Source: an uncultured Candidatus Saccharibacteria bacterium (GTDB taxonomy: Bacteria > Patescibacteriota > Minisyncoccia > Phycocordibacterales > DATDWN01). Taken from it: a stretch of 64,000 nt of DNA. Below, in pieces: positions 1 through 41,650 of the stretch. Each line of letters begins with the position of its first letter. Position 1 is the first letter of the stretch. The stretch spans positions 12,688 to 76,687 of the forward strand of contig CAYMJQ010000002.1 of NCBI GenBank assembly GCA_964391455.1, in the 5' to 3' direction. A model generated the notes under the pieces. That model did not search any database. It was not told the DNA's origin and saw only the letters and a list, made by a program, of their open reading frames with translations. A program made the translations under genes and the position numbers.

Positions 1-121
1 GGTGTGTACAAGTTACAAGTTCATAAAATTAAAGGTGTGTAAAGTAAACAATTCTTGTCGCTTTTGATTTTTATTTATTTATTAATTAAACTTTCAACTT
101 TATAACTTTATAACCAATATT

Positions 122-259
122 ATGTCTTTCACATACAAACCAAAAAAAAGAAAAAGATCAAAAACACATGGTTTTTTGACTAGAAGTAAGTCAAAAACAG
201 GCTCAAAAACACTTTTAAGAAGAAGAAGGAAAGGAAGAGCTAAACTATCTACTGTTTAA
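122..259 (+). CDS. rpmH: 50S ribosomal protein L34
   Basis: My translation is [45 protein letters not shown] (45 aa), a canonical L34 sequence. The ORF is below the track's length cutoff. It sits directly upstream of rnpA, as in the conserved rpmH-rnpA-yidC arrangement. Confidence 0.85.
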
Positions 260-290
260 TTATAAGGCTCTATAAAGCCGTATAAAATAA

Positions 291-632
291 ATGTTAAAAA
301 AAAACAGAAGAATACAGAGGTCGTATTTTAAAAAAATAATAACAGAATCAAAGAGGTATCACTCAACCTCTTTTGTTTTATATTTATCAAAAATAAACAA
401 CAATACCACTCCTAGTAAATTTTCTTTTTCTATATCAAAAAAAATACTTAAATCTGCTGTAAAAAGAAACAAACAAAGAAGAAGGGCTTATTCTGTTATA
501 AAAAATGATTTGGAAAAAATAAAACCCGGATTTTTTTGTTTTTTTGTTTTTAAAAAAGGATTTCATGAAAAATTTTCAGATTTAGAAAAAGATATTAAGG
601 GGTTACTTTCTTCATCTGGTGTGTTAATATAG
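291..632 (+). CDS. rnpA: RNase P protein component
   Basis: A 113-aa basic protein in the position between rpmH and yidC, with a K/R-rich pattern typical of RnpA. Confidence 0.8.
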   Translation: MLKKNRRIQRSYFKKIITESKRYHSTSFVLYLSKINNNTTPSKFSFSISKKILKSAVKRNKQRRRAYSVIKNDLEKIKPGFFCFFVFKKGFHEKFSDLEKDIKGLLSSSGVLI

Positions 633-637
633 TCATC

Positions 638-1357
638 ATGATTACAATATTTAACACACTTGTATCCGAACCTCTTTATAGCACTCTTATATTTTTAATA
701 AACAAAATGCCCTTTTTTGATGTGGGTGTTGTAATAATTATATTTACAATACTAACAAAAATAGTTCTATTACCTCTTTCAATAAAAGCATCAAAATCTC
801 AATTAGAGATGAAAAATGCTGAAAAAGACATAAATCTTATAAAAGAAAAATATAAAGATAGCCCAGAACAAGGTTTGAAAATAATGGATTATTACAAAGA
901 AAAAGGAATAAATCCATTTATAGCTATTTTTATTGTTTTTATACAAATTCCTATTCTTATAGGTCTTTATAGAGTGTTTTTAAATCTTCCAGAAATAAAA
1001 ACAGATTGGTTGTATGGTTTTATAGAAATACCGTCATCCATAAATATGTTGTTTTTAGGTTTAATAGATATATCAGAAAAAAGTATTGTGCTAGCTGTTT
1101 TGGTTGGTGTAACAACTTATTTACAAACAAGCTTGGCTACTTCTAAGTCCGGAGAAGAAAAACAAACAAATAAAGAGGGGGATTTTGCAAAAGCAATGTC
1201 TTTTCAAATGAAGTATTTTTTACCACCACTTATTGCTGTTATTATTTACAACGTATCTTCAGCGGTAGCACTATATCTTTTGGTAAGTAACATATTCTCT
1301 ATTGTTCAAGAGTATTATATAAAACAAAAATATCACAAATCTATTGCAGTTGTTTAG
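638..1357 (+). CDS. yidC: membrane protein insertase YidC/Oxa1 (short form)
   Basis: A 239-aa polytopic membrane protein following rnpA, with a conserved YidC core (…INPFIAIFIVFIQIPILIGLYRVF…). Confidence 0.85.
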   Translation: MITIFNTLVSEPLYSTLIFLINKMPFFDVGVVIIIFTILTKIVLLPLSIKASKSQLEMKNAEKDINLIKEKYKDSPEQGLKIMDYYKEKGINPFIAIFIVFIQIPILIGLYRVFLNLPEIKTDWLYGFIEIPSSINMLFLGLIDISEKSIVLAVLVGVTTYLQTSLATSKSGEEKQTNKEGDFAKAMSFQMKYFLPPLIAVIIYNVSSAVALYLLVSNIFSIVQEYYIKQKYHKSIAVV

Positions 1358-1358
1358 T

Positions 1359-2597
1359 TTATTTGGTCAAATCTAAGCTCCACAAAGATCCATCTCTTTT
1401 ATTTATAAACACTAAAAACTGTTCGTTTGTTGAAAGTATAGGTTTTATTACATCTATCGCTTCACCCCCCTCTGATTCAAGGTTTGAAATTATTTGGGAA
1501 GTTAAGTTTAGAGTATCAAATACCCAAACATCATCACTATATTGAACCAAACCTTTATACCAATTTGTTAGACTTCCACTCCTTATTACATCCCTAGGTA
1601 CTGCACAGTATATTATGTTTGTGTCTTCGTTACTCCAAACACATTTTTCTGGAAATGTTTCTGGGGTTAAGAGACTGTTTGTTTTCTGGTTGTTATCGTA
1701 TAAAAACATATTAAATTCTGATCCTTGTCTTAAATATAAAATCTTTGAAGCATTATTATTTACCAAAGAAGAAAGACCTTTTATGTTGCCTAGTATTTTT
1801 CTAAAAGAAGCGTTTGTTACATCCAAAAAATACAAGAACCCGTCAGTTCCCTCTTCTGGTTTTGTGTTTAGTGCAACAATTCTAGAGTTAACGTATTGAG
1901 AATTAAATTCTTTTACAGGAGAGTTAATTACTAGTATTCTGTTTCCACCACTAAAATTTGATGTGTACCCAATAGAACCATTTTGACTTTTCTCTATATA
2001 AAATACACTATTGTTAAAAACAGATAAATCATAAATGTTTGCCGGGAATGCTATTCCAGATACAGTATTTTCAGTAGTGGTGCTTATCTCTCCAAGTGTT
2101 ATAGAAAAAGTATCTACAGTTTCATCATCATCTTTCAAGTATCTTGCCATTATGGAATTTCCATTATTTCCCCAGACAGCATCATAAATTCTTGGTATTG
2201 TTGTATTAGATATCCTGCCTTGTCTTGGAGAGAACAATTCTACCTCAAATATGTGTCCGGTAGCTTTTTCTATATAACGAACTATCGTCCCTGCTCTTAT
2301 ATCCAAAACTCCTGCCCCAGCTACAGGTTCAGAAGATATTTTTCTCAGTCTTTTTTGGAAATCCGTATTTTCCTCTTCGTCTATTATTGGATTTTCTTCT
2401 GGAAAATTATTATTATCTATTAATCCACCATCTTCACCCCCGAATGGGAAAAAGTTTTTAAATACATTTGTGATACCCCCATCTGTTTGGGGATTTCTTG
2501 TTCTTGTAAAATAATACCCTATAAGTACAGCAAGTATTATGCTTAGTACAACAAATATTATAATGTAGGTTTTTTTTGACATGATTTTTAAGTGCAA
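1359..2597 (-). CDS. hypothetical N-terminally anchored exported protein, last gene of the T4SS-like operon
   Basis: A 412-aa protein with a single N-terminal TM helix followed by a Ser/Thr/Asn-rich extracytoplasmic domain. Its start overlaps the stop of the upstream gene (2588/2597), indicating translational coupling. Confidence 0.5.
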   Translation of the reverse strand: MHLKIMSKKTYIIIFVVLSIILAVLIGYYFTRTRNPQTDGGITNVFKNFFPFGGEDGGLIDNNNFPEENPIIDEEENTDFQKRLRKISSEPVAGAGVLDIRAGTIVRYIEKATGHIFEVELFSPRQGRISNTTIPRIYDAVWGNNGNSIMARYLKDDDETVDTFSITLGEISTTTENTVSGIAFPANIYDLSVFNNSVFYIEKSQNGSIGYTSNFSGGNRILVINSPVKEFNSQYVNSRIVALNTKPEEGTDGFLYFLDVTNASFRKILGNIKGLSSLVNNNASKILYLRQGSEFNMFLYDNNQKTNSLLTPETFPEKCVWSNEDTNIIYCAVPRDVIRSGSLTNWYKGLVQYSDDVWVFDTLNLTSQIISNLESEGGEAIDVIKPILSTNEQFLVFINKRDGSLWSLDLTK

Positions 2598-3553
2598 GAA
2601 TTAGGTGCATTTACCTGATAATTATATACTGAAAAATGAGGTGCTGTTATTCTCGGTCTACCTGTTTGTGGGTCAGGTCCTATAACACGTATCGGTCCCC
2701 TATATGGAACAAAAGGTGTACCATCAGGGTTTCTTCTCGGTGTTCTACCATCAATATTTACTGTACTTATTAGATTCCGACACTCTTCAAATGTTGCTAC
2801 TTCAAATACCGGATACATATTACTTTGTCTAGCTTTTTCATAAAAATTATTTAAACCAGAAGGAGATCTGTCTATCGGGTTTCCGTCAATACAAGTCCCA
2901 TTACTATGACAACCAGATTGGTGTTGTACCGTTTGATTATAACCACCTTCCGTTATATACCAAGTACCTTCCCCCATTAATGCGTGGAAATTTTGAAGAT
3001 TTTGCATCATTCCTGCTGATACCCCAGAGTGAGATGCTCTAAGAGCGGGTAATCCTGATCCAGCAAAAGGAACACATCCACCAGGGCACCCAGTCGGTGG
3101 TATAACAGGGATTACAGGTGAATCTGTCGGCTCGACAGTAGGTCTTTCTATAAGAATATTAAAGCTTAGTATCTGGGGGTTTATTGTATTAAGAATAACA
3201 TATGAACCTATCACCAAAAGCAATCCTAGAACCGCATTTTCTATGTATTCTCTTCCTTGTTGTTTGCCACTTAAAGCGTCAGATGTTGCATATAGAACAC
3301 CACCTAATGTAATAAAAATAAAAGCCAAAGCAACAGCAATTCCAACAGTTAAATTAAACGCTGCTGGCAGGTAGGTACTAAGGTTTGTTCTTCCGTTTTC
3401 AGCACCTATACCTGGAAGAGGTGCTATAACCTCATAATCTCTTGGTCCTGTTGGCTCTGTTTGTGCAAAAGAAAAAGAAAACAAACTAAAAAACAAAAAA
3501 ACAGCTATAAATATTTTTATAAAAAAACTTTTTTTTGTTAAATTATTTTTCAT
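2588..3553 (-). CDS. VirB2/TrbC-like pilin-type membrane hairpin fused to a Cys-rich C-terminal domain
   Basis: Signal peptide, then two hydrophobic helices separated by a short loop (…LPAAFNLTVGIAVALAFIFITLGG…GLLLVIGSYVILNTI…), as in the T4SS pilin architecture. A ~180-aa Cys/Gly/Pro-rich soluble domain follows. Confidence 0.45.
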   Translation of the reverse strand: MKNNLTKKSFFIKIFIAVFLFFSLFSFSFAQTEPTGPRDYEVIAPLPGIGAENGRTNLSTYLPAAFNLTVGIAVALAFIFITLGGVLYATSDALSGKQQGREYIENAVLGLLLVIGSYVILNTINPQILSFNILIERPTVEPTDSPVIPVIPPTGCPGGCVPFAGSGLPALRASHSGVSAGMMQNLQNFHALMGEGTWYITEGGYNQTVQHQSGCHSNGTCIDGNPIDRSPSGLNNFYEKARQSNMYPVFEVATFEECRNLISTVNIDGRTPRRNPDGTPFVPYRGPIRVIGPDPQTGRPRITAPHFSVYNYQVNAPNSCT

Positions 3554-4593
3554 TATCTTTTAAATGTTAAATTTACACTCCTTGTTGAAGATTGGAGTAG
3601 TTTTTCTAAATTTTCTATAGACAAAGATATGTTAGATGTTCCAGAAACCCCTTCTTGTTTTCTAAATGTCTGATTTCTGTCACCCTGAACAGAAACAGGA
3701 GTTCCGTTTATTAACCATTTGTAGAGCATGGACTGATCGTTGTTTTGGTTATCAAAAAAATAAGGAACAGCGTGTATTGATATTTCGTTGGAATTTCCAA
3801 AATCTTCTTCCGCAACTAAGGCTTTTTGAAACTGTATACCATAGACTGGGTCTTTTTTATAAAACTGTATTGTTGGTTCATTTGGTATTAGTGTAATATT
3901 TGCAAAACCTAAACCAGGTCCAGTTTGAGGTGTAACCTCAACAGATATATTGATATTTCTTGATATTAAAGGACTTTCAAATGTATAAACATTTTTACCG
4001 AATCCAGAAGCACTTTCAATAAAGGATCCGTTTCTTGTCCACCGGTAAATCATATTTCTAGGATTCATTTCTACACCATTTTCATTTCTTATGTGCGGTA
4101 TGGCTATTATTGATATTGTGTTTTGGTGTGAAAAAAGAGCTTTTCCTTTATAAAATGGTGGAACATAACCACTACTTTGCCATATTAAGTCTACACTTGT
4201 TGGGACAAAAGAATAGTTTTTTTCTATAACAGAGCCAGAGCTTCCAGTCGCTGTTATATCAAGATTTGTTCTCTCCCCTTCTCTCCCCATTGTGAAACTG
4301 AAATTTTTCTCACCAATACCACTTTTTATTACTCTTCCATTAACTCTCCAAGTAAAATTTAAAGAATCAACATCTAAGGAAAAACTTTTTGCGGTAACAT
4401 AAACAAGTTCATTTGCTTTTGGTATTTCCGGAACAAATTCAATGATTAAGTTTGTGTCCGAATTACTAAAAACTTGAGAATTTACCGTACTATTTAATCC
4501 AAAAAATAATACAGTTATTAGAAATAAAATAGAAAAATATCTCATGTTTATAATAATATCATAGTCTAAATTTTGTGTTTTTTTGTTATTCAC
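3553..4593 (-). CDS. secreted hypothetical protein (T4SS-locus)
   Basis: A 346-aa protein with an N-terminal signal/TM segment and a mostly beta-rich Asn/Ser/Thr composition. It overlaps its neighbours by 1 nt. Confidence 0.5.
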   Translation of the reverse strand: MNNKKTQNLDYDIIINMRYFSILFLITVLFFGLNSTVNSQVFSNSDTNLIIEFVPEIPKANELVYVTAKSFSLDVDSLNFTWRVNGRVIKSGIGEKNFSFTMGREGERTNLDITATGSSGSVIEKNYSFVPTSVDLIWQSSGYVPPFYKGKALFSHQNTISIIAIPHIRNENGVEMNPRNMIYRWTRNGSFIESASGFGKNVYTFESPLISRNINISVEVTPQTGPGLGFANITLIPNEPTIQFYKKDPVYGIQFQKALVAEEDFGNSNEISIHAVPYFFDNQNNDQSMLYKWLINGTPVSVQGDRNQTFRKQEGVSGTSNISLSIENLEKLLQSSTRSVNLTFKR

Positions 4594-4595
4594 AA

Positions 4596-4973
4596 TTAAT
4601 TCTTGATATTTTTTGTTGCCACATTAATTCCCTTTGCTAACAAAGGGTTTTTTTCTGCTAAATCTTTTACTCTGGTTGTTGCTATTAAGAAAACTACAGC
4701 TACGGTCCATCCTGGAAGTATGTTTATATAAGGTATGGTTTCAATTAACCAACCTAAACCTAAGGAACCTAGTCTTTTTAAGGTTATCATATTTATTCCA
4801 TACATATGGAACCATAACCAAAATGTCATAAATACAAAAAAACTTACAATAGCTGCAAGTATATTACCCACAAGTGGTATCCAACCCGTTAAAGCTTGAA
4901 GGGTGTCAAAAAATAACGCTGTAAGAGTCATCAAAAAACCCGTGCCGAATTTTATTTGTGTTTCCTTTTTCAT
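4596..4973 (-). CDS. small polytopic membrane protein (T4SS-locus)
   Basis: A 125-aa protein with 3-4 predicted TM helices, immediately downstream of the VirB4 ATPase gene. Confidence 0.5.
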   Translation of the reverse strand: MKKETQIKFGTGFLMTLTALFFDTLQALTGWIPLVGNILAAIVSFFVFMTFWLWFHMYGINMITLKRLGSLGLGWLIETIPYINILPGWTVAVVFLIATTRVKDLAEKNPLLAKGINVATKNIKN

Positions 4974-6785
4974 TTAACTACTATTTTCTAAATCTGCTCT
5001 AGCTCTTTTTATAGACAAAACCTGAGATGGGTCAGAGGTTATAATCTGGTCTTCGGTATAAGAAGCTATTATTTTTATAGCTACATGTTTTAGCCCAGCA
5101 AAGAATATCCCTTCCCCAACATCTGATTCTAGAAGAAGATATTTTTCTTCATCAGTAAGACTAAATACTTGTTGTAATTTATCTATTGCAGTCGGAGATT
5201 GTTTTAGAAGTATTTGTATTGATGAGTTCGTTACTATAGGAACTCCATATGGAGATTTCATAAAATCATCAACATCTTGGGTTATGGTCGCAAGACCCAA
5301 ATAATATTTTCTTCCTCTTTTTGCCAAAGAAAGCAAAAAAGATGCAGTGTCTTCGGATTTCATCATCCACCAAGCTTCATCTATAACCAAGAGTCTTTTC
5401 TTTAGTTTTTTTCTTATCATGTTCCATATATAGTGCATGATTATGTACATAGCTATAGGTTTTAATTCATCTTCCATGTCCCGCAGAGAGAAAACTATAA
5501 ACTTTTTATTGATATCAATATTACTAGGTCTGTTTATAAAACCAGCCCATGTTCCTCTGGTGTATTTTGTAAGTCTTTGTGCTAGAGAACTACCACCTTC
5601 CATACCAGATAAAACCAATTCAAAATCAGAAAGTAGAGGAGGCTCTATGTTTTCAAAATTTGAATCAGCCGTAATATCTTTCAAGGCGTAAGTTTCTGTT
5701 ATAGCTCTATCTATAATCGCATCTTCTTCTGGTGTAAGCCCACCCATCATTAGTCTAAACAAACCAACCAAATTTATAATATTTGATCTCAAAACACTTG
5801 CAAAAGATTCATCTTCTCCTGGTGTTGGTATTTCAAAAGGGTTTATGTGGTGTTCAGAGTTTAGAGAAATGTTAAAATATCTACCACCAACAGCTTCTGA
5901 TAAATATTCATATTCCCTTTCTGGGTCAATAACCATCACATCTGTATCAAACATCAGTGTTCTTAGTATCTCTAGTTTTGTTGCATAAGATTTCCCAGCA
6001 CCAGATTTTGCAAAAGTTATAGAGTTGTAGTTTTCCAGTGTAAACCTATCAAACAAAACCAGAGAAGAGTTGTGTCTGTTTATACCATAAAGTATTCCAT
6101 TATCTGAGGTCAGGTCAAATGATATAAATGGAAACAGTGAAGATAGTGGAGAAGAGTTTAATTTGCTGTAAACCTCTAGTCCGTCTGTAGCTATTGGTAT
6201 TGCTGCTTTGAAAGCTTGTTCTTGTTGGAAGAGTGCTGGCTTTAGATATACAAGTTTTGCTTCTAGAATAGATTTTATTTCCGATTCTACTTTATCTAGC
6301 TCATCACTTGTATTTGCATACATTGTTATATAAAGACCCACATCAAACAACCTTTCTTGTGCTTGTTGCAAGTTGTCTCTTAGATTTTCTAGGTCTTGAT
6401 ATGCGGTATCCAGCATAGGGTCTCTTACGAGCCCTTTGGCTTCTCTTGCGTTTATCTGACTTTGTACTTCAGCCACTTTCTTTTGAAAAGTTCTTAGAAC
6501 GTTTGCTGTATCTATTGGTTTTACAAAAATAGAAACATCAAAAATTTTATCTAGATTTATAATTGGCGCAAACCAACTATCTGAAAGATATCTTGGATAA
6601 GATATGACAAAAAAGCTTCTTAAAACTTTCTCTCCGAGGTTAATTTCCTTAGGTGATACTTTTAAAGCACTTGGAGCTATAACATCTTTTAATTCAAGAC
6701 TGCTTGAATCATATATTTCTTGAGGCAAGATTGTTGAAATCTCCCTTTCCTCTTTTTTTGTTTTTAAAAAATCAAATATTCCCAT
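4974..6785 (-). CDS. virB4: VirB4/TrbE/CagE-family T4SS ATPase, central and C-terminal ATPase part
   Basis: Walker A GAGKSY (…FAKSGAGKSYATK…) and the VirB4-type Walker B LLVIDEAWWMM. The 603-aa protein lacks the family's N-terminal domain, which is encoded by the upstream ORF. Confidence 0.8.
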   Translation of the reverse strand: MGIFDFLKTKKEEREISTILPQEIYDSSSLELKDVIAPSALKVSPKEINLGEKVLRSFFVISYPRYLSDSWFAPIINLDKIFDVSIFVKPIDTANVLRTFQKKVAEVQSQINAREAKGLVRDPMLDTAYQDLENLRDNLQQAQERLFDVGLYITMYANTSDELDKVESEIKSILEAKLVYLKPALFQQEQAFKAAIPIATDGLEVYSKLNSSPLSSLFPFISFDLTSDNGILYGINRHNSSLVLFDRFTLENYNSITFAKSGAGKSYATKLEILRTLMFDTDVMVIDPEREYEYLSEAVGGRYFNISLNSEHHINPFEIPTPGEDESFASVLRSNIINLVGLFRLMMGGLTPEEDAIIDRAITETYALKDITADSNFENIEPPLLSDFELVLSGMEGGSSLAQRLTKYTRGTWAGFINRPSNIDINKKFIVFSLRDMEDELKPIAMYIIMHYIWNMIRKKLKKRLLVIDEAWWMMKSEDTASFLLSLAKRGRKYYLGLATITQDVDDFMKSPYGVPIVTNSSIQILLKQSPTAIDKLQQVFSLTDEEKYLLLESDVGEGIFFAGLKHVAIKIIASYTEDQIITSDPSQVLSIKRARADLENSS

Positions 6786-6789
6786 ATTT

Positions 6790-7425
6790 TTATTGTGATT
6801 TTATTGGTTTTTCTGTTTCACCAGGATTGAATATTTTATAAAATAATTCTATAACCTCTTCTGTTCCAAGTCTTATAACTCTGATACCGCAACGAGAAAG
6901 ACCTTGTTCTACGACAGAAACCCTCTGTTCTAATTGAGTCCTGTTTTCTTCAAAAGTAGCTTCTTTTCTCATTTTTTCTTCTTCACTAGATGTTCTTTTG
7001 AAAAAAGAAGGTGTGCCACCCTTTATGTTTATAAGTGCTGGGTCATAAGGAACAACTATAAAAAAACTTTTTGTCATTATATTTGTAGTTTCTGTAAATT
7101 TTCTTATGAATTCTATATATTCTTTAGTTTGGATTTTCATTAAATCATTTACTTGTTCTTTGTATCTTTCTTCAAGTAGGGCTATGTAGGGCCTTATATC
7201 CAGTCTTCTTGACTGTATTGATATTTGCACGGGGAAATCAAGTGAATTTAAAAAATCTTGGAACTGTAGAATTATGGCCCTTCTTTCATCTTCAGATTTG
7301 AGACTAAAGTTTAGAGAAGATGTTAGGATAACAGCCCTCATGGTATCATCTTTTAAAATAGCGATACCGTCTCTGACTTCTTTTATCGGGACAAACTCTT
7401 GTGTACTTTTAGCATTTACCGCCAT
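6790..7425 (-). CDS. VirB4 N-terminal domain, encoded as a separate upstream cistron
   Basis: The 211-aa protein begins …EFVPIKEVRDGIAILKDDTMRAVILTSSLNFSLKSEDERRAIILQFQDFLNSL…, resembling the N-termini of Gram-positive VirB4 homologues (TraE/Orf16/PrgJ type). Its TAA stop is followed by 4 nt and then the ATG of the ATPase ORF. Confidence 0.6.
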   Translation of the reverse strand: MAVNAKSTQEFVPIKEVRDGIAILKDDTMRAVILTSSLNFSLKSEDERRAIILQFQDFLNSLDFPVQISIQSRRLDIRPYIALLEERYKEQVNDLMKIQTKEYIEFIRKFTETTNIMTKSFFIVVPYDPALINIKGGTPSFFKRTSSEEEKMRKEATFEENRTQLEQRVSVVEQGLSRCGIRVIRLGTEEVIELFYKIFNPGETEKPIKSQ

Positions 7426-7455
7426 AAAATTTATTATAACACAGTAAAATATAAT

Positions 7456-7890
7456 TTATTTTGTTTTTACACCACTTTTACTTGTTAAAGGATTTAAATT
7501 TTCATTTACATCCAATGACCAAGACATTTCTTTTAATTTACTATCAGAAAGTTTAGGAACGTATACTTGTTTTTGGCTTTTTATAACATCTTCTGTTTTT
7601 TGTATTTTTTTCTGTTCTTTTTTCCAAATATATAAATTTTGTTTGGTGTAAAAAACAAAAGCAGCTTCAAGAAAATCTATGAAAGGTTTGTTGTTTATTT
7701 TGTAAAATGCTAAAGCCAGTGATAGTGGGATTATTATTGCAATAATTAAAATACTTAATAGAAAAGGTAAATAATTGTATACAACAAAACACATGCCAAC
7801 ACCACCAGCTAAATAAACAAATTGTTTTATGGTGAAAGGTCCAACGATTTTGTCTTCTACATCTATAAATTGTGGGACTTGATATCGCAT
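7456..7890 (-). CDS. PrgI/VirB3-like small membrane protein
   Basis: The N-terminal motif MRYQVPQFIDVEDKIVGPFTIKQFVYLAGG is followed by two TM helices. This pattern and the position upstream of VirB4 match PrgI-family proteins. Confidence 0.55.
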   Translation of the reverse strand: MRYQVPQFIDVEDKIVGPFTIKQFVYLAGGVGMCFVVYNYLPFLLSILIIAIIIPLSLALAFYKINNKPFIDFLEAAFVFYTKQNLYIWKKEQKKIQKTEDVIKSQKQVYVPKLSDSKLKEMSWSLDVNENLNPLTSKSGVKTK

Positions 7891-7970
7891 GATTATAAAT
7901 TTTACAGTTTTTAGTTTCTGGTGACTAGTGGATATACAAAAACTAAAAATTAATTACTATATAAAAACAA

Positions 7971-8588
7971 TTATTCCAGCGGCTCTCTGTAAGGATCCTT
8001 TTCATATTTTTTAATTGATTCTGCGGAATTTGTTGTGGTGTTTAATTTTTTTTCTAATATAGGGTTTTGAATATTTGAACTTGCTTGTTGTCCATATCTA
8101 GGGACACCGATTGTTTGTTTGTCTAAAACTTCATTTTGAAATACTGGTTTTGGTACAGGATTAACTCTTAAAGGCTCATTTTCTTCTATCATAGGGAGGT
8201 TTTCAGGTTTTAACTCTAGCTGGGTACTAGAAGACATCAATTTTTCTTTGTTTTCGGTATTTTCTGATGAATTTTTTTCTAACCCTTCTTTTTCTATTTG
8301 TTTTAAAGCATGGTCAAACACTCTATTTTCTAAATCTTCCAAGATTTGTTCAGCAAGAAGTTTGGATATATTTAAGTCAGAAATCATATTTGATAAAAAA
8401 TTATTGGGTTTTTCTAGTCCAACTAAAATAAGTACAACAGAATCAGTCAAGTTGTTTGTTTGTTCTTCATTAAGTCCGTATTTTTTACATATTTCTATAA
8501 CTTTTTCTTCCCAATCACTATTAAAAACAAAATCTTTAATAGGCTTAGGTAGATTTTCTATGTAGTTATTGTATGTATTTTTGTCCAT
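7971..8588 (-). CDS. acidic hypothetical protein (T4SS-locus)
   Basis: A 205-aa Glu/Asn-rich protein with no TM segment, carried in the operon. Confidence 0.45.
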   Translation of the reverse strand: MDKNTYNNYIENLPKPIKDFVFNSDWEEKVIEICKKYGLNEEQTNNLTDSVVLILVGLEKPNNFLSNMISDLNISKLLAEQILEDLENRVFDHALKQIEKEGLEKNSSENTENKEKLMSSSTQLELKPENLPMIEENEPLRVNPVPKPVFQNEVLDKQTIGVPRYGQQASSNIQNPILEKKLNTTTNSAESIKKYEKDPYREPLE

Positions 8589-8591
8589 ATT

Positions 8592-10877
8592 TTATGTTGT
8601 TACTTTTGGTTCAGTAGGTTCCTCTGGTTTTTCTTCTGTTTTTTGATTTTTTTCCTCTTCCTCTTTTTTCCTTTGTTCTTCCATATATTCCCTTGTTGCT
8701 TCTTCGGCTTTCTCTTTTTTGCTTTTTTCTGTGGCTAAACCTCTTATTTTTCTTGCAATAACTCTTCTATCAGATGCATTGTTAGTTTGTTCGGTTTGTG
8801 AAAGTGCATACCCTCCACCTACAAAAGCCCCAGGTATTCCACCAACCACCCCACCTAAAACTGTGCCCCCAGTAATTTTTGCTAAAACTGAACCATATCT
8901 ATACATTACTCCACCATTTTCTATTCTATTTGCATAATCATTAACTCTTTCTTTGTATCTTTCTTTCAATTTTGACTCATTGTCCTTTCCTAATGCTGTA
9001 ATTTCTTCCAATCTTCTTCGTTCATCTGATTTGAAGTTAGAACGATTATTTTTAGCTTCCTCATATATTTTCTTTCGGTCTTCAATTGCCTTGTTTAGAT
9101 TTTCAATCTCAGATTTTCTTCTTAAGTCATCATTTCTAATATTATCCATTTCTGTTTGGATTCTCACTTTTTCTTCCTGGCTTTCTGTCCAGTCTAATTG
9201 TTTTTGTAATTCCTTTAGTTTTTTTCTATTTTCTTCTATTTTTTGATCATTTTCATTTTTTGCAGATACAGCTTGGTTTAGAAGTTTTTCTTTTTCTGTT
9301 GCGTCTTTTCCTTCTTCAGTTTGTTGCCATATTCTATTTTCTTCATTTATAAAGCCTTCAGAATTTAATTTTTCTTCAGCTTCTTTTGTTGCTTTGTCTT
9401 TTTTCTTTGCTTCTTCGATAACATCATCATTTACCTTATAATACTGTTTTACTTTTTCAGCTTCATCTTTTGCTCTTTGTTCTGTAATTGCTCTATAGTT
9501 TGTTTTTTTGGTGTCTACTTTTCCAAAATCACTTCCAAAACCAGTTGCTTTGGCAACTGTGCCAAAACTATCTGTGGCCCTTGCATCAAAAGAACTTGTT
9601 GCAAGTCTATTTGCAGCAGAAAGTTTTAATCTTGCTCTTATATCACCTTTAGCTGCTCTGTCTTTGAGATCTTCATCATTTGCTACATTACCACCCCATC
9701 TTCCAATTGTGCTTCTACCCAACCTTCCTGCCCCTCCCATAAACACTCCACCAGCATAACCACTAAACTTACTAGTTGCTGTTGCGATGTGTGTGGATCC
9801 TTTTTTGGACATGTTTGCCGATACTATAAGTGAAGCAATGGACAAACCTATAATTATGGTAAATTTAAATAATAAATTTATAAAACCTTCATTATTTGCT
9901 GGGTTTTCACTTATTACACCACCCCAATTACCCCCCACAGTTATAAAACCTGGGCTCGTAAAAATAGTCATTGATACAAGCATCATTAGCATAAAAACAG
10001 GTGGAAATATAAGCTGGCTATTCAAAGCATTCCACCATTGAGAAGCATAAGGTTTCATGAAATCCAAAGCTAATCCCATATACGCAACTGGAGAAAGAAC
10101 AAGTAAAACAAGTATTGCTAAGAATCTAACAATAAACATTACTGATATGGCGAGGAAAACAAAACAAAGAATTAGAAATAGAAATATACCTAAAAGAGGA
10201 ATAAATATTAAATTAATCCTACCCCCCGCAGAACTTACCATTCCTTCAAATGCGTTGTTTGAATAAAAAGAAGTTATTCCAACAGCTCTCATAAAAGGCA
10301 CAGTTAAACCACCTCTTATTTCGACGTTTCCAGCTGTAACATTTCCTCTGTCTATTATGGCTTCATACAAACCAACAGTAACCACGTTTGAAGCATCTAT
10401 AAGCACTTTTGTAAAAAATAGGCTGAAGTTTATAAGTATAGAAGCCAGAACTATGCCTATAATAAATCTTTTTATATATTCTCTACTTCCCTGACCAATT
10501 ATGAGTTTTATTGCTTCAAAAAGTAGTATGAATATAAAAGCAATATTCATTAGGTCTTTTAGTATTTTCCATGCTGTGTTTATTCCTGTGAGACTTTGTA
10601 AATTCTCTTTAATATCCAAAATTGAGTATTCAATAACAAAGTCAAGTAATAGGCCAAATATCATGAGCAATAAAGCCATGATTGTTAGAATTCCATAAAA
10701 TATAGAAGAGATTATTGCAGTAAGACAGTTCTGTACATTTGGAAACGGAGTTTGGAAACCATACCAAGTTTGTGGGGCACAACCATTTCCTAGACTGAAA
10801 AAAGCATCAGCTGTAAAAGGTGTAAACACACCCACAAACAGAATTAGTATTAGTATGTAAGGAAAAAACCTTCTCAT
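8592..10877 (-). CDS. VirB6/TrbL-like polytopic membrane protein with long K/E-rich coiled-coil C-terminal extension
   Basis: A 761-aa protein with a signal peptide, at least six TM helices, Gly-rich segments, a ~250-aa Lys/Glu coiled-coil region and a C-terminal Gly-zipper helix. Confidence 0.5.
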   Translation of the reverse strand: MRRFFPYILILILFVGVFTPFTADAFFSLGNGCAPQTWYGFQTPFPNVQNCLTAIISSIFYGILTIMALLLMIFGLLLDFVIEYSILDIKENLQSLTGINTAWKILKDLMNIAFIFILLFEAIKLIIGQGSREYIKRFIIGIVLASILINFSLFFTKVLIDASNVVTVGLYEAIIDRGNVTAGNVEIRGGLTVPFMRAVGITSFYSNNAFEGMVSSAGGRINLIFIPLLGIFLFLILCFVFLAISVMFIVRFLAILVLLVLSPVAYMGLALDFMKPYASQWWNALNSQLIFPPVFMLMMLVSMTIFTSPGFITVGGNWGGVISENPANNEGFINLLFKFTIIIGLSIASLIVSANMSKKGSTHIATATSKFSGYAGGVFMGGAGRLGRSTIGRWGGNVANDEDLKDRAAKGDIRARLKLSAANRLATSSFDARATDSFGTVAKATGFGSDFGKVDTKKTNYRAITEQRAKDEAEKVKQYYKVNDDVIEEAKKKDKATKEAEEKLNSEGFINEENRIWQQTEEGKDATEKEKLLNQAVSAKNENDQKIEENRKKLKELQKQLDWTESQEEKVRIQTEMDNIRNDDLRRKSEIENLNKAIEDRKKIYEEAKNNRSNFKSDERRRLEEITALGKDNESKLKERYKERVNDYANRIENGGVMYRYGSVLAKITGGTVLGGVVGGIPGAFVGGGYALSQTEQTNNASDRRVIARKIRGLATEKSKKEKAEEATREYMEEQRKKEEEEKNQKTEEKPEEPTEPKVTT

Positions 10878-10882
10878 TATGA

Positions 10883-12574
10883 TTATATTGGTCTAAATAT
10901 TGCCCAAACAGAACCATCAGCAGATACGATTCCAGAACAAGTTGGCTGTGTTCCAAATACCGCACAAGCTCCACCCCAACCAACAAAAGTGTGACCTATG
11001 CCTGGTGTTGCTGATATAGACTGGTGTGATCCTCTAGGATAGACTTTTGATATTGTTGTTGAAGCCATAGTAACTGAATTCAACTCATCTACTCCGTCGC
11101 TCAATGATCCTACACCTGAAACAGTAAATGTAACTGTGTATGTTCCAACACCTGGAAGAGGTGTTGGTGGTGCTGGGTTTTCGTGTCCGGCTGGGTTTCT
11201 GTTACAAGCACACTCAACCAACCAACCCCAACCACCTTCTGCTATAGAGTATTCACCGTCCGGACCTTCATTTCCAACAGCACCAATCATTACATCTACA
11301 ATCATTCCATTACCAAAATTAAACTTATCTAATCTTATTGGGTGTTCCATTAATTCTCCTCCAAATCTACTACTAATTATCGGAGCTGCTTGTCGCATAC
11401 CGTAATTAGAAGCGGGATAACCATTTAATACAGATAAAACAGCACTACTACTTACTGTTGTACAATCTACGTTTGGATCTGGTGTGTATGCTGGACAATG
11501 ACCACCACTTCCTCCACCAGCTCCTAGTGGCCAAGGAGGAAGACCTCCAACTGTTCCTGGGGTGCTTCTGCAGTTTGCTTGTCCACCATCTCCACCCCCA
11601 CCCCCACCATCTGGGTCACCACCATCTCCACCACTTCCACCTGTTGCTGTACAGTTTATGGATGGAGCCGTTGCTGTGATCCGGTAATTTGTTATTGGTT
11701 GTTGTTCATCTCTTAAACTATTAGTAAAAACTCTTCCGGAAGCATCTCTTTCACTTGAAGTAAATAAACTTCCAGCGCCCCCAACTATTTTTTCTACCAA
11801 TTGTGTAAGCAAGGCAGTAACTATTTCATTGAATTCATCAGCTGCATTTAATCTTTCCCAACTTGAACCAAGACTTCTTGATAATTGATCGTTTATAAGG
11901 ACCCCAGGGGTGGTTGTTATTTCTTCTTGAGTACATATTGTTTGTTGAGATATTGGATCAATCACCTCTGCGCCTCTAGGACATCTTTTTACGTTTAGAA
12001 AACCACCACTTAAATCTAATTCTCTTTGTCTTGTGGCTTGAGCTGCACTTATTCTCATAGATAAAGTGTTTTGGGCTTCGAGGTATGCTCCATAAGGGTT
12101 GTTTTGAGAGTTTTGAGTTAATTCAAACCATCCCTGCCAACCACCCTGAGAGAAATCTCTGGTAAAAGCCTCATAATTATTTCTAAGTATATCTAGTGTA
12201 CAGGTGTAATTCGTGGTGTCTGGGTTTATATAATTTTTAACCAAAGCCAGTCTTACTTGGGCGTTAAACGGTGCACATAATTGATTTACTCCTGCTTGAG
12301 ATAAGAAAGCGGAAGCAGTTTCGTCTCCTATATCTAAGAAAAATTGTCTAGGATTCTGTACATATAGAGGGTTTCCTTTAAAACCAGAGTTGATCCAGTT
12401 TACTGTTGTGGCGGTAAGTCTTTTTAATGCTATGGCTGAAACTTGGTAAGCAACTCCATCAAGGGCGAATTCTTTTAAATTTTGAGCAATATCTACATAC
12501 TGTGCGTTGGTTTTTACTGGAGAAGATAATGATAATAGTGATGCCATTATCATTATTAATAAAGTTTTTTTCAT
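10883..12574 (-). CDS. secreted Gly/Cys-rich protein (T4SS-locus)
   Basis: A 563-aa protein with a signal peptide. It has a poly-Gly/Asp tract (GGSGGDGGDPDGGGGGGDGG) and many Cys in the C-terminal half. Confidence 0.5.
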   Translation of the reverse strand: MKKTLLIMIMASLLSLSSPVKTNAQYVDIAQNLKEFALDGVAYQVSAIALKRLTATTVNWINSGFKGNPLYVQNPRQFFLDIGDETASAFLSQAGVNQLCAPFNAQVRLALVKNYINPDTTNYTCTLDILRNNYEAFTRDFSQGGWQGWFELTQNSQNNPYGAYLEAQNTLSMRISAAQATRQRELDLSGGFLNVKRCPRGAEVIDPISQQTICTQEEITTTPGVLINDQLSRSLGSSWERLNAADEFNEIVTALLTQLVEKIVGGAGSLFTSSERDASGRVFTNSLRDEQQPITNYRITATAPSINCTATGGSGGDGGDPDGGGGGGDGGQANCRSTPGTVGGLPPWPLGAGGGSGGHCPAYTPDPNVDCTTVSSSAVLSVLNGYPASNYGMRQAAPIISSRFGGELMEHPIRLDKFNFGNGMIVDVMIGAVGNEGPDGEYSIAEGGWGWLVECACNRNPAGHENPAPPTPLPGVGTYTVTFTVSGVGSLSDGVDELNSVTMASTTISKVYPRGSHQSISATPGIGHTFVGWGGACAVFGTQPTCSGIVSADGSVWAIFRPI

Positions 12575-12681
12575 AAAATAATTATCTTAGAATACGTTTA
12601 TGTATAATTTACATAGTAATTATACATTATTATATTAGATATATATTCAAAAAAAAAGAAATTATGTTGAAAACTAATTTT

Positions 12682-13497
12682 TTAAGCGTTCCTTATCAGA
12701 AAGTCATTCATTTTAGTTAGTATGTTTATAAAAATAGATGAATTTTGGGTGTAATTACCAAATGCATCAAAAAGTCTTATAGGGTCATCTAATCCAATCT
12801 TCATATTTTCTAAATTAAACAATATTGCAGAGGATATATTTAATAACTCTAAGTGTACAGAAATAGCTTTTTCAGGCACCTCCATGTTCAGTAGATATTT
12901 TATAGTTGATTTGTTGATTGTAATTACAGAGTCAAGTTTCTTTAATTCTTCCTTATTTTCTGTACTTACAGCATTTGCAAATACTAAAATAGGATCATCA
13001 TAGATACTATAGTATATAGGTTGTATTGCTTCGTTTACACCCTCTTTGTATCTTTTCATTGTTTCAGAATCTGATTTTGTTGTAACTTTTAGGTTTTGTC
13101 TTATGTATGTTACTGGTTTTTGGTTGTATTCAGGAGAAGAAAGGGTTTTGGCCGCTATTTCAAAAGCTTTTTCTTCGGTGATTTGTTCGCCATTTCTAAC
13201 AGTTAGTAAATATTGAGATAGGAAATCTCTAGAAAGTTGATCTGTTAATGTCGCTCCTTCAGTTTCAGTTAAGTCCAAAGTTAGGTTTTGAAATGGGGTT
13301 TTTTGTTCAACAGTACTTAGAATTTTTTTCCAATCAACATCGGAGTTTTCTTTTGTTTGTATTGCAGGCATCAATGTTCCACCATCATCGTTTTTTATAG
13401 TAATTTTTTCATTATTTAAATTTTTATTAGACAACCAAACAGAAACAACTAGACCTAAACATAATATAAAAGTAGCTATAATTTTATTATTAGGCAT
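12682..13497 (-). CDS. N-terminally anchored hypothetical protein
   Basis: A 271-aa protein with one N-terminal TM helix and no recognised domain. It is the first gene downstream of the UbiA-fusion gene and may mark the operon start. Confidence 0.45.
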   Translation of the reverse strand: MPNNKIIATFILCLGLVVSVWLSNKNLNNEKITIKNDDGGTLMPAIQTKENSDVDWKKILSTVEQKTPFQNLTLDLTETEGATLTDQLSRDFLSQYLLTVRNGEQITEEKAFEIAAKTLSSPEYNQKPVTYIRQNLKVTTKSDSETMKRYKEGVNEAIQPIYYSIYDDPILVFANAVSTENKEELKKLDSVITINKSTIKYLLNMEVPEKAISVHLELLNISSAILFNLENMKIGLDDPIRLFDAFGNYTQNSSIFINILTKMNDFLIRNA

Positions 13498-13529
13498 TTT
13501 ATAAATCTTAACATGTTTTATTACTTGAT

Positions 13530-15182
13530 TTATAACAAGTTATAAACACCAGCCATGAAGTAAATCAAAATATAAGAAATAGCGATTCCTGCTAACAAAA
13601 AAAATCTTAATGTGAATATGTGTTTTTCTACATAAGGTTTTTTGGTTATAAGTCTATAGCCTATTATTGATGCGGGGATACATATGATATATAGCAGATA
13701 AAAAGATAAAAATAACGGTATTAAAAGAATACTTAAGCTGAACATAATTGCTACTATTTTTATTCCATTTTTCGGGAACATTGTTGGGATTGTCATTATT
13801 CCGTTTTGTTTATCACCCTCAATGTCTTTTATATCTTTAAAGTTTATAGCTAGTGTTACCATGATTATTATTCCAAGACTTAAAAGTATCGGAAATACAT
13901 ATATTTCTTTATATACAGACACAAAAAAGAATCCAGCTAAAATAGTAGAAAGACAAGCAACTGAAATAAGAAAGGAAGGAATCAAAGGGAATCTTCTAAG
14001 TCTAAGTGGTGGTGCTGAATATATATAAGAACAAAAGAAGTAAATTAGTGCCATAAAAAACGGATAAAATCCGGCCAAAAAAGCTCCCAAAAGACCTATA
14101 AATAACCAGATATTGCTAATATCCAACATTTCTTTTTTGGTTAAATCTTCTTTTACAAGAGGTCTATTTTTGTTTGAAATTTTGTCTATATCTACATCAT
14201 TTATATCGTTTAGATGTACTGCATGCATCCATAATGCTATCCAAGCTATTGTTATGGATAAAATTCCAAATATATCTATAAAAACAAATTTATTCCCTAA
14301 ACCATTTATATAAGCAAATCCAATTCCAGAGAAAAGAGATGCTGTATAAAAATTTACTCTTTCTAGTCTTATGTTTTTTATTACTGATAAAAATTTGTTT
14401 TTATTTATATTCCAAAGTATTAAAATAGATATGAATATAGATATTAAAAACAATATTTGTGAAACAAATTTTGCAAAACCTATTTCTATAAATCTCTCTC
14501 TTGTTACGGAGCCCAGACCCTCTCTTAGTGAATTGTGTGAGATTGTCGATTCTAAGATTATTTTTTCTAAAAATAAGACTATTTCAATACTTTGTGCTGG
14601 TGGGTTTTTTATGTGACTTATCGTGTATATAAGTCCTGGTATGGTTGCCATCAAAAAGACAAATAAATATATAAAAAACATGCTTAATAAACTTGTTTTT
14701 ATATTTTTACTTTCTCTCCATATCAAATATCCAATAACCAATATAGATATGGCTATACCTACCCTAATTCCTAGTGTTGCTCCGGAATATATGTTTGGTC
14801 CGAAAAAAGTTAGAAAATTTAAAATTAAATCTTTTCCACTACTAAAAATGTATAACATTTTTAAACCTTTTCCATTACTTATGACTATATCTATAATTGG
14901 GGCTAACCAAATAAGAGGTAATCCAAACAGAATGATTTTAGAAGCGTTTACATAATCTTTTGTAAAATATCCAAAAATAAAAATAGTTCCCAGTGTTACT
15001 GACAAGAAAAATAAACCAACATGTGTTATTGCATAAGAATCTGTGTGTATTATTCCAGATAAAGTAGGACTAGACAGACCTTCTAAGAGAAGTCTGACAA
15101 ATAAAATTCCAATAAAGCCCATAACCCAAGAAGTTAATGTAATCTCTTGTTTTTTTATGGTTGATATTAATGTATCTATCAT
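13530..15182 (-). CDS. UbiA-family prenyltransferase fused to an N-terminal polytopic membrane domain
   Basis: A 550-aa, all-membrane protein. The C-terminal half carries both UbiA Asp-rich motifs (NDINDVDID and DIKDIEGD). The N-terminal ~280 aa is an extra domain of at least seven TM helices. Confidence 0.6.
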   Translation of the reverse strand: MIDTLISTIKKQEITLTSWVMGFIGILFVRLLLEGLSSPTLSGIIHTDSYAITHVGLFFLSVTLGTIFIFGYFTKDYVNASKIILFGLPLIWLAPIIDIVISNGKGLKMLYIFSSGKDLILNFLTFFGPNIYSGATLGIRVGIAISILVIGYLIWRESKNIKTSLLSMFFIYLFVFLMATIPGLIYTISHIKNPPAQSIEIVLFLEKIILESTISHNSLREGLGSVTRERFIEIGFAKFVSQILFLISIFISILILWNINKNKFLSVIKNIRLERVNFYTASLFSGIGFAYINGLGNKFVFIDIFGILSITIAWIALWMHAVHLNDINDVDIDKISNKNRPLVKEDLTKKEMLDISNIWLFIGLLGAFLAGFYPFFMALIYFFCSYIYSAPPLRLRRFPLIPSFLISVACLSTILAGFFFVSVYKEIYVFPILLSLGIIIMVTLAINFKDIKDIEGDKQNGIMTIPTMFPKNGIKIVAIMFSLSILLIPLFLSFYLLYIICIPASIIGYRLITKKPYVEKHIFTLRFFLLAGIAISYILIYFMAGVYNLL

Positions 15183-15189
15183 AGATTAA

Positions 15190-15975
15190 TTATACTAGGT
15201 TTTTTGTTATTTCTATCCATAAAGACATAGGTAAATCTTCAGCTCTTATCTTTGGATTTATTTTTAATTTATTAAAAACATTTTGTGCTTTTTCTTTTCC
15301 AAAAACAGAAGATATATTAGAAAACAATTGTTTTCTTTTGTGAGCAAACCCAGCATGAATTATTTGGAAAAAATTTTTTTCATCTATTTCTCTAAACTTA
15401 TTTTTTGAGATATTATCAATTTTTATTACAGCGGAGTCTACTTTTGGTGGTGGGCTAAAGGCGCCTCTTGGAACCTTTTTTATTATTTTAGGGTTTCCAA
15501 ATATTTTTACCGACAAAGACAAAAGACTTTCTTTTCCGTTTTTAGCCATAATTCTTTCAGCAACCTCTTTTTGCACCATAAGAATCATTTCTTTTGGTTG
15601 AAGATTTGTATCTAAAAATTTTCTTATTATTGACCCTGTTATGTAATATGGAATATTGGCTATAACTTTATATTTTTTAGTACCTAAATTTTTTTCTGAT
15701 ATTTCAAACTCCAGAATATCTTTTTGTATTATTTTTAGTTTTTTATTTTTAATATAATTTTCAAATTTTTTTTCTAATAAAGGTATAAGTCTGTGGTCTT
15801 TTTCTACAAGCAAAACATTATCTGATATTTTTAGTATTTCTTCGGTTAAAAATCCTTCACCTGGTCCTATTTCTAGTATAAGCTCATCTTTTTCTGGTTT
15901 ACCAGAAAGAACAACATCTTTTGCAATTGTTTTTGATTTAAGAAAATTTTGGCCAAGAGATTTTTTTTTAAACAT
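15190..15975 (-). CDS. rsmA: 16S rRNA (adenine1518/1519-N6)-dimethyltransferase
   Basis: KsgA family, with the N-terminal LGQNFL motif and a Rossmann-fold core. Confidence 0.85.
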   Translation of the reverse strand: MFKKKSLGQNFLKSKTIAKDVVLSGKPEKDELILEIGPGEGFLTEEILKISDNVLLVEKDHRLIPLLEKKFENYIKNKKLKIIQKDILEFEISEKNLGTKKYKVIANIPYYITGSIIRKFLDTNLQPKEMILMVQKEVAERIMAKNGKESLLSLSVKIFGNPKIIKKVPRGAFSPPPKVDSAVIKIDNISKNKFREIDEKNFFQIIHAGFAHKRKQLFSNISSVFGKEKAQNVFNKLKINPKIRAEDLPMSLWIEITKNLV

Positions 15976-15979
15976 AAAT

Positions 15980-17995: not shown

Positions 17996-18019
17996 GTTAA
18001 CAACTTCTATTGACCGGTT

Positions 18020-18048
18020 TTAGGTACTATATATAATGGATAGGTACG
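18020..18048 (+). promoter_or_regulatory. sigma70-like promoter (TTGACC-16-TATAAT) for the LysM-M23 gene
   Basis: The sequence reads ttgaccggttttaggtactatatataat. Confidence 0.4.
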
Positions 18049-18055
18049 GTAATGG

Positions 18056-19231: not shown

Positions 19232-19266
19232 AAATTTTACTAACAACTAACAACTAAAAACTACCC

Positions 19267-39509: not shown

Positions 39510-39817
39510 ATTATTTTTGAAAGTTTTTTGAATTAATTTTTAATTTTTTTCTTAAAAAAATGGCCCGCCCTGTGGCGAACTTCAATAAAATAATAATACA
39601 CCCTATGTATAATTTTGTCAATCGAAGCTTTGCCTCAGATTATATGTAAGTCTCTGGCGGTAATACTAAAAAATTTTTATTTATGAAATCTTTTACACAT
39701 TTTTGGAGCGTTACAAAAAAAATTTTGATATAATATTATGAAAGAATGGTGATAAAATCATAACTAATATTGAATTATACAAAATGTAGTAATTCATAAT
39801 TCTTTATTCAACCCATT

Positions 39818-41572: not shown

Positions 41573-41585
41573 TTCCAAATTCGGT

Positions 41586-41650
41586 GAATTTCTTGTTCCC
41601 AAATTAAAAATACTTACTCACAATTTTATTTTAAAACTATAAACTATTTA
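41586..41650. repeat. dispersed intergenic repeat, shorter copy C
   Basis: ccaaattcggtgaatttcttgttcccaa…attttaaaact matches the ends and left arm of copies A and B. Confidence 0.45.

Follow-up and report, generated by a model that had tools for sequence, protein, structure and literature searches.

The window analyzed here, a 64,000-nt stretch of contig CAYMJQ010000002.1 (positions 12,688 to 76,687; assembly GCA_964391455.1), carries at its own positions 1359-13497 an operon for a type IV secretion system (T4SS); all coordinates below refer to the window. The locus is very probably a domesticated chromosomal T4SS of the Patescibacteria (candidate phyla radiation [CPR]), of the Paceibacteria/Parcubacteria type, that was derived from MPF-FATA systems and has lost the capacity for self-transfer. 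The assignment is correct but not new: this system was described in 2023-2025 and was already known from Wang 2023, Quinonero-Coronel 2025, and a 2025 FEMS review. What goes beyond the published accounts of Patescibacteria T4SSs, and is worth following up, is that its sole pilin is fused to a predicted cell wall-cutting enzyme domain and that such modules are swapped among related loci. The original prediction, made from the DNA letters alone, took the locus for a secretion, contact, or DNA-uptake machine rather than a self-transmissible element, a reading with which both the fixed synteny in 44 to 54 genomes and the literature (PMC10633639, PMC12102498, PMC12857230) agree.

Motor, membrane platform, and chromosomal position

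Relatives of the VirB4 ATPase were sought in one genome per species. The best 80 of the 485 found (loci L001-L080) are 77 to 89% identical to the window protein and come solely from Parcubacteria, Paceibacteria, Zambryskibacteria, Taylorbacteria, and unclassified metagenome-assembled genomes; synteny and median identities were counted in the 44 related loci with full 10-kb flanks. The operon itself consists of eleven minus-strand open reading frames (ORFs), where ten or eleven had been predicted. All of them are intact and tightly packed, with intergenic gaps of -10 to +107 nt in the ORF listing, and they encode VirB4, a TrsD/VirB4-N protein, a PrgI/VirB3 protein, a VirB6-like protein, one VirB2-type pilin, and six accessory proteins (Table 1).

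VirB4 has the predicted Walker A (GAGKSY) and Walker B (LLVIDEAW) motifs and matches the conju_CD1110 model NF045971 at 4.9e-111 (372 bits; cutoff, 325) and PF19044 at 3e-29. NF045971 is the best VirB4 model and the only one matched above its cutoff, the F-type and VirB4_CagE models scoring far below theirs; public records label this protein cluster “type IV secretory pathway VirB4 component.” The ATPase had been predicted as a single protein, but its N-terminal domain is encoded separately. In the 752-position NF045971 model, the VirB4 ORF covers positions 182-733 and the TrsD ORF positions 2-118, and this complementary coverage means that the two jointly correspond to one canonical VirB4. 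The TrsD ORF also matches NF045975 at 1.9e-12 (model positions 101-233) and, below the cutoff of that model, NF041427 TrsD at 1.4e-4. It adjoins virB4 in all 44 loci and is an ORF of its own, of 210 to 221 aa, in every related locus examined, so neither a frameshift nor a sequencing error accounts for the split.

PrgI, similarly present in 44 of 44 loci, matches PF12666 at 7.6e-10 (39.6 bits; cutoff, 27). The 761-aa VirB6-like protein, in contrast, had no direct family match in scans with hidden Markov models (HMMs). Because matches were obtained only with its orthologues (PF04610 TrbL/VirB6 in 7 of 59, at best 6e-5, and TrbL_4 in 1 of 59), the VirB6 label rests on the family and not on the window sequence. 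The protein has ∼6 to 8 hydrophobic segments, consistent with the polytopic topology expected for it, is found in 43 of the 44 loci, and shows invariant residues W103, F116, N150-F151-S152, F154, D161, N164, and R251 in the family alignment; against the Protein Data Bank (PDB), its profile gave only generic coiled-coil matches that stem from the tail. Thus, the HMM check of the apparatus upheld the VirB4 and PrgI assignments directly and that of VirB6 at the family level.

The gene order ksgA-(UbiA)-g271-g563-VirB6-g205-PrgI-TrsD-VirB4-(g125)-g346-pilin-g412|yidC-rnpA-rpmH|dnaA recurs throughout the 44 loci, yidC-rnpA lying on the strand opposite to the operon, and dnaA occupies the same place in 53 of the 54 related loci that reach far enough. 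This identical order answers the question, raised with the original prediction, of whether the locus is core or variable: it belongs to the core chromosome and does not represent an element. Conserved synteny beside yidC-rnpA-rpmH|dnaA in 44 to 54 related Paceibacteria genomes rules out a mobile element, and that reading was rejected.

Median identities to the window proteins are 80% for VirB4, 66% for TrsD, and 52% for PrgI, compared with 52% for UvrD, 48% for KsgA, 42% for YidC, and 32% for RnpA among the housekeeping neighbors, and with 26 to 38% for the envelope proteins of the operon. The cytoplasmic motor is nearly constant, in contrast to the rapidly diverging exposed parts. A VirB4 identity of 77 to 89%, set against the 32 to 52% of housekeeping proteins, indicates strong purifying selection; the constraint on VirB4 (∼80%) is unusually strong for this neighborhood.

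Genes for self-transfer were looked for in a Pfam scan of 41 window ORFs, which covered most of the ORFs of at least 200 aa outside the operon and recovered, besides the T4SS components, housekeeping genes and the type IV pilus and competence genes described below. As predicted, no relaxase (MOB) family was detected among the 41, and no VirD4/TcpA-type coupling protein (type IV coupling protein [T4CP]) was detected in any scanned window ORF of at least 300 aa; positions 1-20000 contain neither att-like flanking direct repeats nor oriT-like inverted repeats. The claim that a coupling protein is absent holds for the window only; VirD4-like genes are reported for most Patescibacteria genomes, at a distance from virB4 (PMC12102498). 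The window was also said to lack an integrase, which proved wrong: a tyrosine recombinase (Phage_integrase, 1.3e-44, with a SAM-like N-terminal domain) is encoded at 23686-24615, 10 kb from the operon. It is the sole recombinase found and is probably the XerC/D chromosome dimer resolvase.

The pilin-peptidase fusion and other variable modules

The only ORF in the window with a pilin domain, at 2588-3553, encodes a 321-aa protein whose N-terminal third consists of a signal peptide followed by a pair of hydrophobic helices. PF18895 matches this protein at 6e-5, slightly under the gathering score, and matches the pilin orthologues in 12 of 12 and in 48 of 51 cases; a few of these also match TrbC/VirB2. 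The signal peptide, the hairpin, and the family HMM that characterize VirB2/TrbC-type pilins are all found. The VirB2-like hairpin that had been predicted is accordingly a pilin domain of the family recognized in the orthologues, but it is not a bare hairpin, being fused to a peptidase domain.

A profile of 12 sequences of this C-terminal domain recovered the N-terminal domains of Sonic, Indian, and Desert hedgehog from the PDB (22 chains; best E value, 1.9e-4), in an alignment that spans the zinc site motif. Residues H211, D223, E251, and H306 are invariant in a 52-sequence alignment, and H216 is found in all but one of the 12 sequences of alignment A1. The HMM alignment places H211, H216, D223, and E251 on H135, H141, D148, and E177, in the customary numbering, of Sonic hedgehog (Shh). 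H306 would be the equivalent of the last His of the LAS enzymes; the His aligned with it in 4c4m probably belongs to a purification tag. At the sequence level, both the LAS/Hedgehog-DD-peptidase fold and the His-Asp-His plus Glu/His set of ligands are recognizable, so that the domain is predicted to be a zinc peptidase of the Hedgehog/DD-peptidase (LAS, M15-like) type. In the AlphaFold model of the 321-aa protein, the mean predicted local distance difference test (pLDDT) score is 85 and exceeds 90 in the C-terminal domain, whereas the Pro/Thr linker that joins it to the pilin is flexible (pLDDT below 50 at residues 133-145). The domain differs from the LAS M15 peptidases VanX, VanY, LdcB, MepA, and ShhN in being fused behind a T4SS pilin hairpin, in having an insertion of ∼40 residues before the last His, and in escaping detection by any Pfam M15 model.

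C-terminal extensions of at least 60 aa occur in 64 of the 70 pilin-domain ORFs from 67 related loci. LAS-like extensions were recognized with a local HMM in 22 orthologous pilins, and Pfam assigned others to Peptidase_M15_4 (two), CHAP (two), SLT (one), and NlpC/P60 (one); the remaining ones are helical or Cys rich and have no family assignment. Monoderm VirB1 proteins have two activities, SLT and CHAP. Loci L031, L040, and L060 (13.5 to 16.4 kb) each contain two pilin-domain genes; by eye, the extensions in L031 and L060 include both SLT-like and CHAP/NlpC-like motifs and those in L040 an SLT-like motif, and the second pilin of L040 has just a Ser/Thr/Gly-rich tail. A profile search with the pilin domain only returned nothing but short pilins of up to 193 aa and so cannot serve to measure the frequency of the fusion. 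A tblastn search of 72,556 plasmids with one domain of the locus gave no match.

VirB1 is missing from most pilin-bearing Patescibacteria genomes (PMC12102498). If pilins do bear such modules, its homologues would be only seemingly missing, and the filament, or the filament base, would itself breach the host cell wall.

The other structural protein with variable modules is g563, which indeed has the predicted Gly/Cys-rich composition (563 aa, 12 Cys residues, and a Gly run). Its homologues reach the Pfam model of DUF4141 (TraI of Bacteroides conjugative transposons), whereas the window protein itself does not. From its sequence, g563 can be described as a conserved DUF4141-related N-terminal domain followed by swappable adhesin-type C-terminal domains, a feature that likewise goes beyond the published Patescibacteria accounts. 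Neither a helical bundle VirB5 fold nor a family HMM match was found that would make it a VirB5/TrbJ-type pilus tip protein, and its family profile retrieved nothing useful from the PDB. In the MPF-B module of Bacteroides (traG-traI-traJ), the DUF4141 gene is located between the VirB4 (traG) and VirB6 (traJ) genes (PMC10434189). The DUF4141-related gene of the window has a comparable placement, directly upstream of the VirB6-like gene. However, g563 is far longer than the MPF-B protein and carries the adhesin-type domains, and the remaining T4SS components of the window are not of the MPF-B type. It is a tentative and rather doubtful suggestion that swappable host-facing modules on these two structural proteins (hydrolases on the pilin and lectin- or Ig-type domains on g563) set the host range.

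Accessory proteins and the genes around the operon

Table 1. Genes of the T4SS operon and its left flank
Feature	Position	Strand	Evidence or remark
rpmH (ribosomal protein L34)	122..259	+	PF00468 on Logan contig L081; flanking marker
rnpA (RNase P protein)	291..632	+	PF00825 on L081; flanking marker
yidC-like membrane insertase (putative label)	638..1357	+	ORF; convergent with operon end; 44/44 related loci
g412, last operon gene, membrane anchored, probable beta-propeller ectodomain	1359..2597	-	412 aa
Pilin-peptidase fusion: VirB2-type pilin domain (~1-130), Pro/Thr linker, predicted LAS domain (~150-321)	2588..3553	-	321 aa
g346, secreted or anchored, three Ig-like repeats (W..NG motif)	3553..4593	-	
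g125, small polytopic membrane protein	4596..4973	-	125 aa; without recognizable pilin signal
VirB4 ATPase, C-terminal two-thirds of canonical VirB4	4974..6785	-	NF045971, PF19044
TrsD-like protein, separately encoded VirB4 N-terminal domain	6790..7425	-	NF045975, NF041427
PrgI/VirB3-like membrane protein	7456..7890	-	PF12666
g205, cytoplasmic, acidic/Lys rich, C-terminal DPYREP motif	7971..8588	-	205 aa
VirB6-like polytopic membrane protein, long variable Lys/Glu-rich tail	8592..10877	-	761 aa
g563, secreted, Cys/Gly rich; DUF4141-related N-domain (~290 aa) and variable adhesin-type C-region	10883..12574	-	
g271, first operon gene, N-terminally anchored	12682..13497	-	one hydrophobic segment

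Two of the remaining accessory proteins, g412 and g346, are encoded in all 44 related loci. The former has a single N-terminal hydrophobic segment; its family profile gave weak matches to TolB in the PDB (E value, 0.04), and single orthologues match the propeller families PD40, DPPIV_N, and DUF5050. Its translation probably begins at the ATG at 2582, and M6 is nearly invariant in the alignment. The latter contains three conserved W/NG repeats, with weak matches to BiPBP_C and PKD and one to T4 Hoc (E value, 0.003). The small protein g125 has three or four hydrophobic segments and was found at the same position in 40 related loci by blastp and in 18 of the 44 full-length loci by tblastn; its 40 orthologues match no informative Pfam family and no pilin model. 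In g205, which has no hydrophobic segment, family scans gave no match and the profile search of the PDB was fruitless. Its C-terminal DPYREP motif, nearly invariant in a 45-sequence alignment in which the rest of the body is poorly conserved, may be a docking peptide. Finally, g271, found by tblastn in 23 of the 44 loci, matches no family and no PDB profile; a Pfam scan of its family revealed no T4SS family but did reveal bacterial TSP3 repeats in 9 of 32 orthologues. No VirB8-like (NTF2-fold, bitopic) protein was recognized in the window, given the lack of matches of g271 and the weak propeller matches of g412, and HMM scans of the operon proteins gave no match to the VirB7, VirB9, or VirB10 families. 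VirB8 is rarely found in this phylum (PMC12102498).

The genes rpmH and rnpA, called origin proximal in the original prediction, are confirmed by their Pfam matches on a public Logan contig (L081) that overlaps positions 1-727 of the window at 100% identity and adds 1 kb of sequence: on it, a divergent dnaA starts 79 nt to the left of window position 1. On the other side of the operon, the gene at 13530-15182 encodes a membrane protein of 550 aa that has a UbiA prenyltransferase domain (4.1e-29) at its C terminus; this gene lies between the operon and a ksgA-like gene (a putative label; 15190-15975) that is kept in 39 of the 44 loci. The UbiA-domain gene is present in 4 of the 44, including the closest relatives L001, L002, and L007. 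The UvrD/PcrA-type helicase gene that follows at 15980-17995 is a conserved neighbor. Divergent from it, at 18056-19231, is a gene for a secreted protein in which LysM repeats and a putative M23 motif (THLHFEIR) were seen by eye; such a gene lies near the T4SS in 9 of the 44 loci. The GC content of the operon resembles that of the remainder of the window. Shuffled sequence yields promoter-like sites at least as often, terminator-like sites mark no clear operon boundaries, and an Rfam scan detected four tRNAs only.

Farther away, a type IV pilus cluster at 39818-46957 encodes PilB (T2SSE, 6.9e-119), PilC (T2SSF), two pseudopilin-like proteins with N-methyl motifs, one of which is 601 aa long and has a CarboxypepD_reg domain, and a 487-aa protein without a family match. 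ComEC appears to be split, with the Competence and DUF4131 domains encoded at 53055-54536, the metallo-beta-lactamase domain at 55155-56096, and an ORF on the opposite strand (54542-55132) between them; the metallo-beta-lactamase domain is usually fused to the other two. ComM (Mg-chelatase-like, 7.8e-92) and RecJ are encoded at 19267-20814 and 50348-52090. Together, ComM, RecJ, ComEC, and the type IV pilus genes make up a full natural competence toolkit within the same 64 kb. Around positions 39500-39820, the genes switch from mostly the minus to mostly the plus strand, close to the minimum of the cumulative GC skew (∼39.6 kb). DnaA boxes are not enriched (23 found versus 21 expected), and this minimum cannot be interpreted as an origin; dnaA lies just to the left of window position 1.

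Known systems, proposed function, and rival explanations

The closest match among known systems is the monophyletic Patescibacteria VirB4 clade that is nested in MPF-FATA, was found in 2,407 of 3,035 genomes, and is accompanied by TrsD, PrgI/VirB3, VirB6, and PF18895 pilins (PMC12102498). The window probably shares this VirB4 lineage and has TrsD, PrgI/VirB3, a putative VirB6, and a PF18895-type pilin; it also shares the absence of a relaxase or T4CP beside virB4, the near-universal presence, and the location reported for Paceibacteria, near dnaA, dnaN, rnpA, rpmH, and ksgA (PMC12102498). There is no essential difference, and the window represents one more instance; additional to that account are the pilin-hydrolase fusions that vary among species and the DUF4141-related gene upstream of VirB6. 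A 2025 review lists the Patescibacteria systems as newcomers to the T4SS superfamily (PMC12857230).

In the saccharimonadial epibiont Southlakia epibionticum, transposon sequencing showed that a Gram-positive-like T4SS with essential pilins, and with no recognizable T4CP or relaxase, is required for epibiotic growth (PMC10633639). Its locus in strain ML1 (SEML1_0006-0019) shares with the window the Gram-positive-like subunits, the pilins, and the lack of coupling protein and relaxase. However, ML1 has an array of six divergent pilins, and its peptidase and lysozyme are encoded by genes of their own downstream of virB4, whereas the window has a single pilin gene with a fused peptidase; the essentiality was established in ML1.

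Among the monoderm MPF-FATA systems (pCF10 Prg/Pcf, pIP501 Tra, CTn2 CD1110, and ICEBs1 Con), a probable relationship shows in VirB4, which passes the CD1110 equivalog cutoff, and in PrgI, pGO1-type TrsD, a putative VirB6-like channel protein, and a predicted cell wall hydrolase in the gene set. These systems are mobile, whereas the window locus is core chromosomal and has no T4CP (PcfC/TraJ/ConQ), relaxase, oriT, or recognized VirB8-like protein (PrgL/TraM). Conversely, they lack the VirB2-type pilin of the window, and their hydrolases combine SLT and CHAP domains on a single transmembrane anchor, unlike the predicted LAS peptidase on the pilin hairpin.

In the proposed mechanism, PrgI and the VirB6-like protein would provide the inner membrane platform on which VirB4 and TrsD dock, and from this platform a pilus-like conduit of pilin would be assembled with energy from VirB4. 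The peptidoglycan hydrolase borne by the pilin would replace VirB1 and open the wall of the symbiont, of the host, or of both, and the variable adhesin-type modules would mediate and set the contact with the host. The conduit could then serve for macromolecular traffic between epibiont and bacterial host, either by uptake of host material or by export of effectors. Such a transfer fits the essentiality of the T4SS for epibiotic growth in S. epibionticum.

Several points weigh against this interpretation. Substrate, pilus, activity, and direction of transport are at most predicted from the genes of the locus; the VirB6 and pilin calls in the window depend on subthreshold or family-level matches; and the apparatus includes no identified VirB8-like protein, with g271 and g412 unmatched or weakly matched. 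Pilin subunits that each bear a 190-aa domain may not fit into a canonical pilus; the hairpin might serve just to anchor the protein in the membrane, or the C-terminal domain might be removed by cleavage. Furthermore, a VirD4-like ATPase may be encoded elsewhere in the genome, of which 64 kb plus 1 kb was covered.

This last point is the basis for regarding the locus as a functional conjugation system whose coupling protein and relaxase act in trans. The distant T4CP genes of most Patescibacteria genomes and the inspection of just ∼65 kb of this one are compatible with such an arrangement, to which the UvrD/PcrA-type helicase next door might be added. However, the pairing of a helicase gene with ksgA resembles the usual synteny of housekeeping genes, no more than 103 of the 3,035 genomes contain relaxases (PMC12102498), and the T4CP of S. 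epibionticum is dispensable while its T4SS genes are essential (as given in PMC12102498). With a fixed, vertically inherited, origin-proximal locus that adjoins no integrase, att, or oriT signature, conjugation in trans is very unlikely. A decaying, functionless remnant of an integrated conjugative element is hardly credible at all: the lack of relaxase and T4CP at the locus and a VirB4 in two pieces might suggest decay, but the 11 ORFs are intact and packed, the TrsD/VirB4 split is conserved among related genomes, the constraint on VirB4 across species exceeds that on housekeeping proteins, and the GC content is that of the surrounding DNA.

Of the two other explanations, one concerns what the machine does and the other its architecture. 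Dedicated import of host DNA or RNA, akin to archaeal Ced or Helicobacter ComB, is a real possibility, if not a probable one. The lineage lacks nucleotide synthesis, and import has been proposed for the Patescibacteria system (PMC12102498). In addition, a 2026 preprint describes a cultivated relative, nourished by host RNA, that forms host-penetrating tubes, possibly T4SS pili, although it calls the mechanism of RNA uptake unresolved (bioRxiv 10.64898/2026.06.21.733656) and any link between the T4SS and the RNA uptake is hypothetical. VirB4 does match the CedB model at 2.9e-8, but this local match of 32.8 bits (cutoff, 700) is confined to the shared P-loop region; neither CedB with CedA/A1/A2 nor the VirB7-10 components of ComB were found, and no nucleic acid-binding component was recognized in the operon. 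The separate type IV pilus/ComEC competence set, with ComM and RecJ, makes the DNA-uptake explanation less necessary.

Alternatively, the hairpin of the 321-aa protein may merely anchor a hydrolase equivalent to VirB1 in a short envelope channel that forms no pilus, an option that we consider somewhat unlikely. The monoderm hydrolases PrgK, TraG, and CwlT are membrane anchored (summarized in PMC12102498), the window contains no other pilin-domain gene, and 64 of 70 orthologues carry a large C-terminal domain. On the other hand, PF18895, the family of the hairpin, is one of T4SS pilins, some orthologues match TrbC/VirB2 as well, and related genomes also encode short members of this family that stand alone. 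The flexible linker would permit surface display or cleavage of the domain, and arrays of pilins are indispensable to S. epibionticum (PMC10633639).

Taken as a domesticated Patescibacteria T4SS, the locus provides a clean and complete Paceibacteria-type example rather than a new kind of system. Few machines besides this T4SS have been shown to be indispensable for epibiotic life in a very large and mostly uncultured part of the bacterial tree. The predicted zinc peptidase on the pilin of the window is a candidate for the element that breaches the wall, and the combination of variable adhesin modules with a VirB4 that stays ∼80% constant is the pattern to be expected if the exposed parts of the machine track host specificity.

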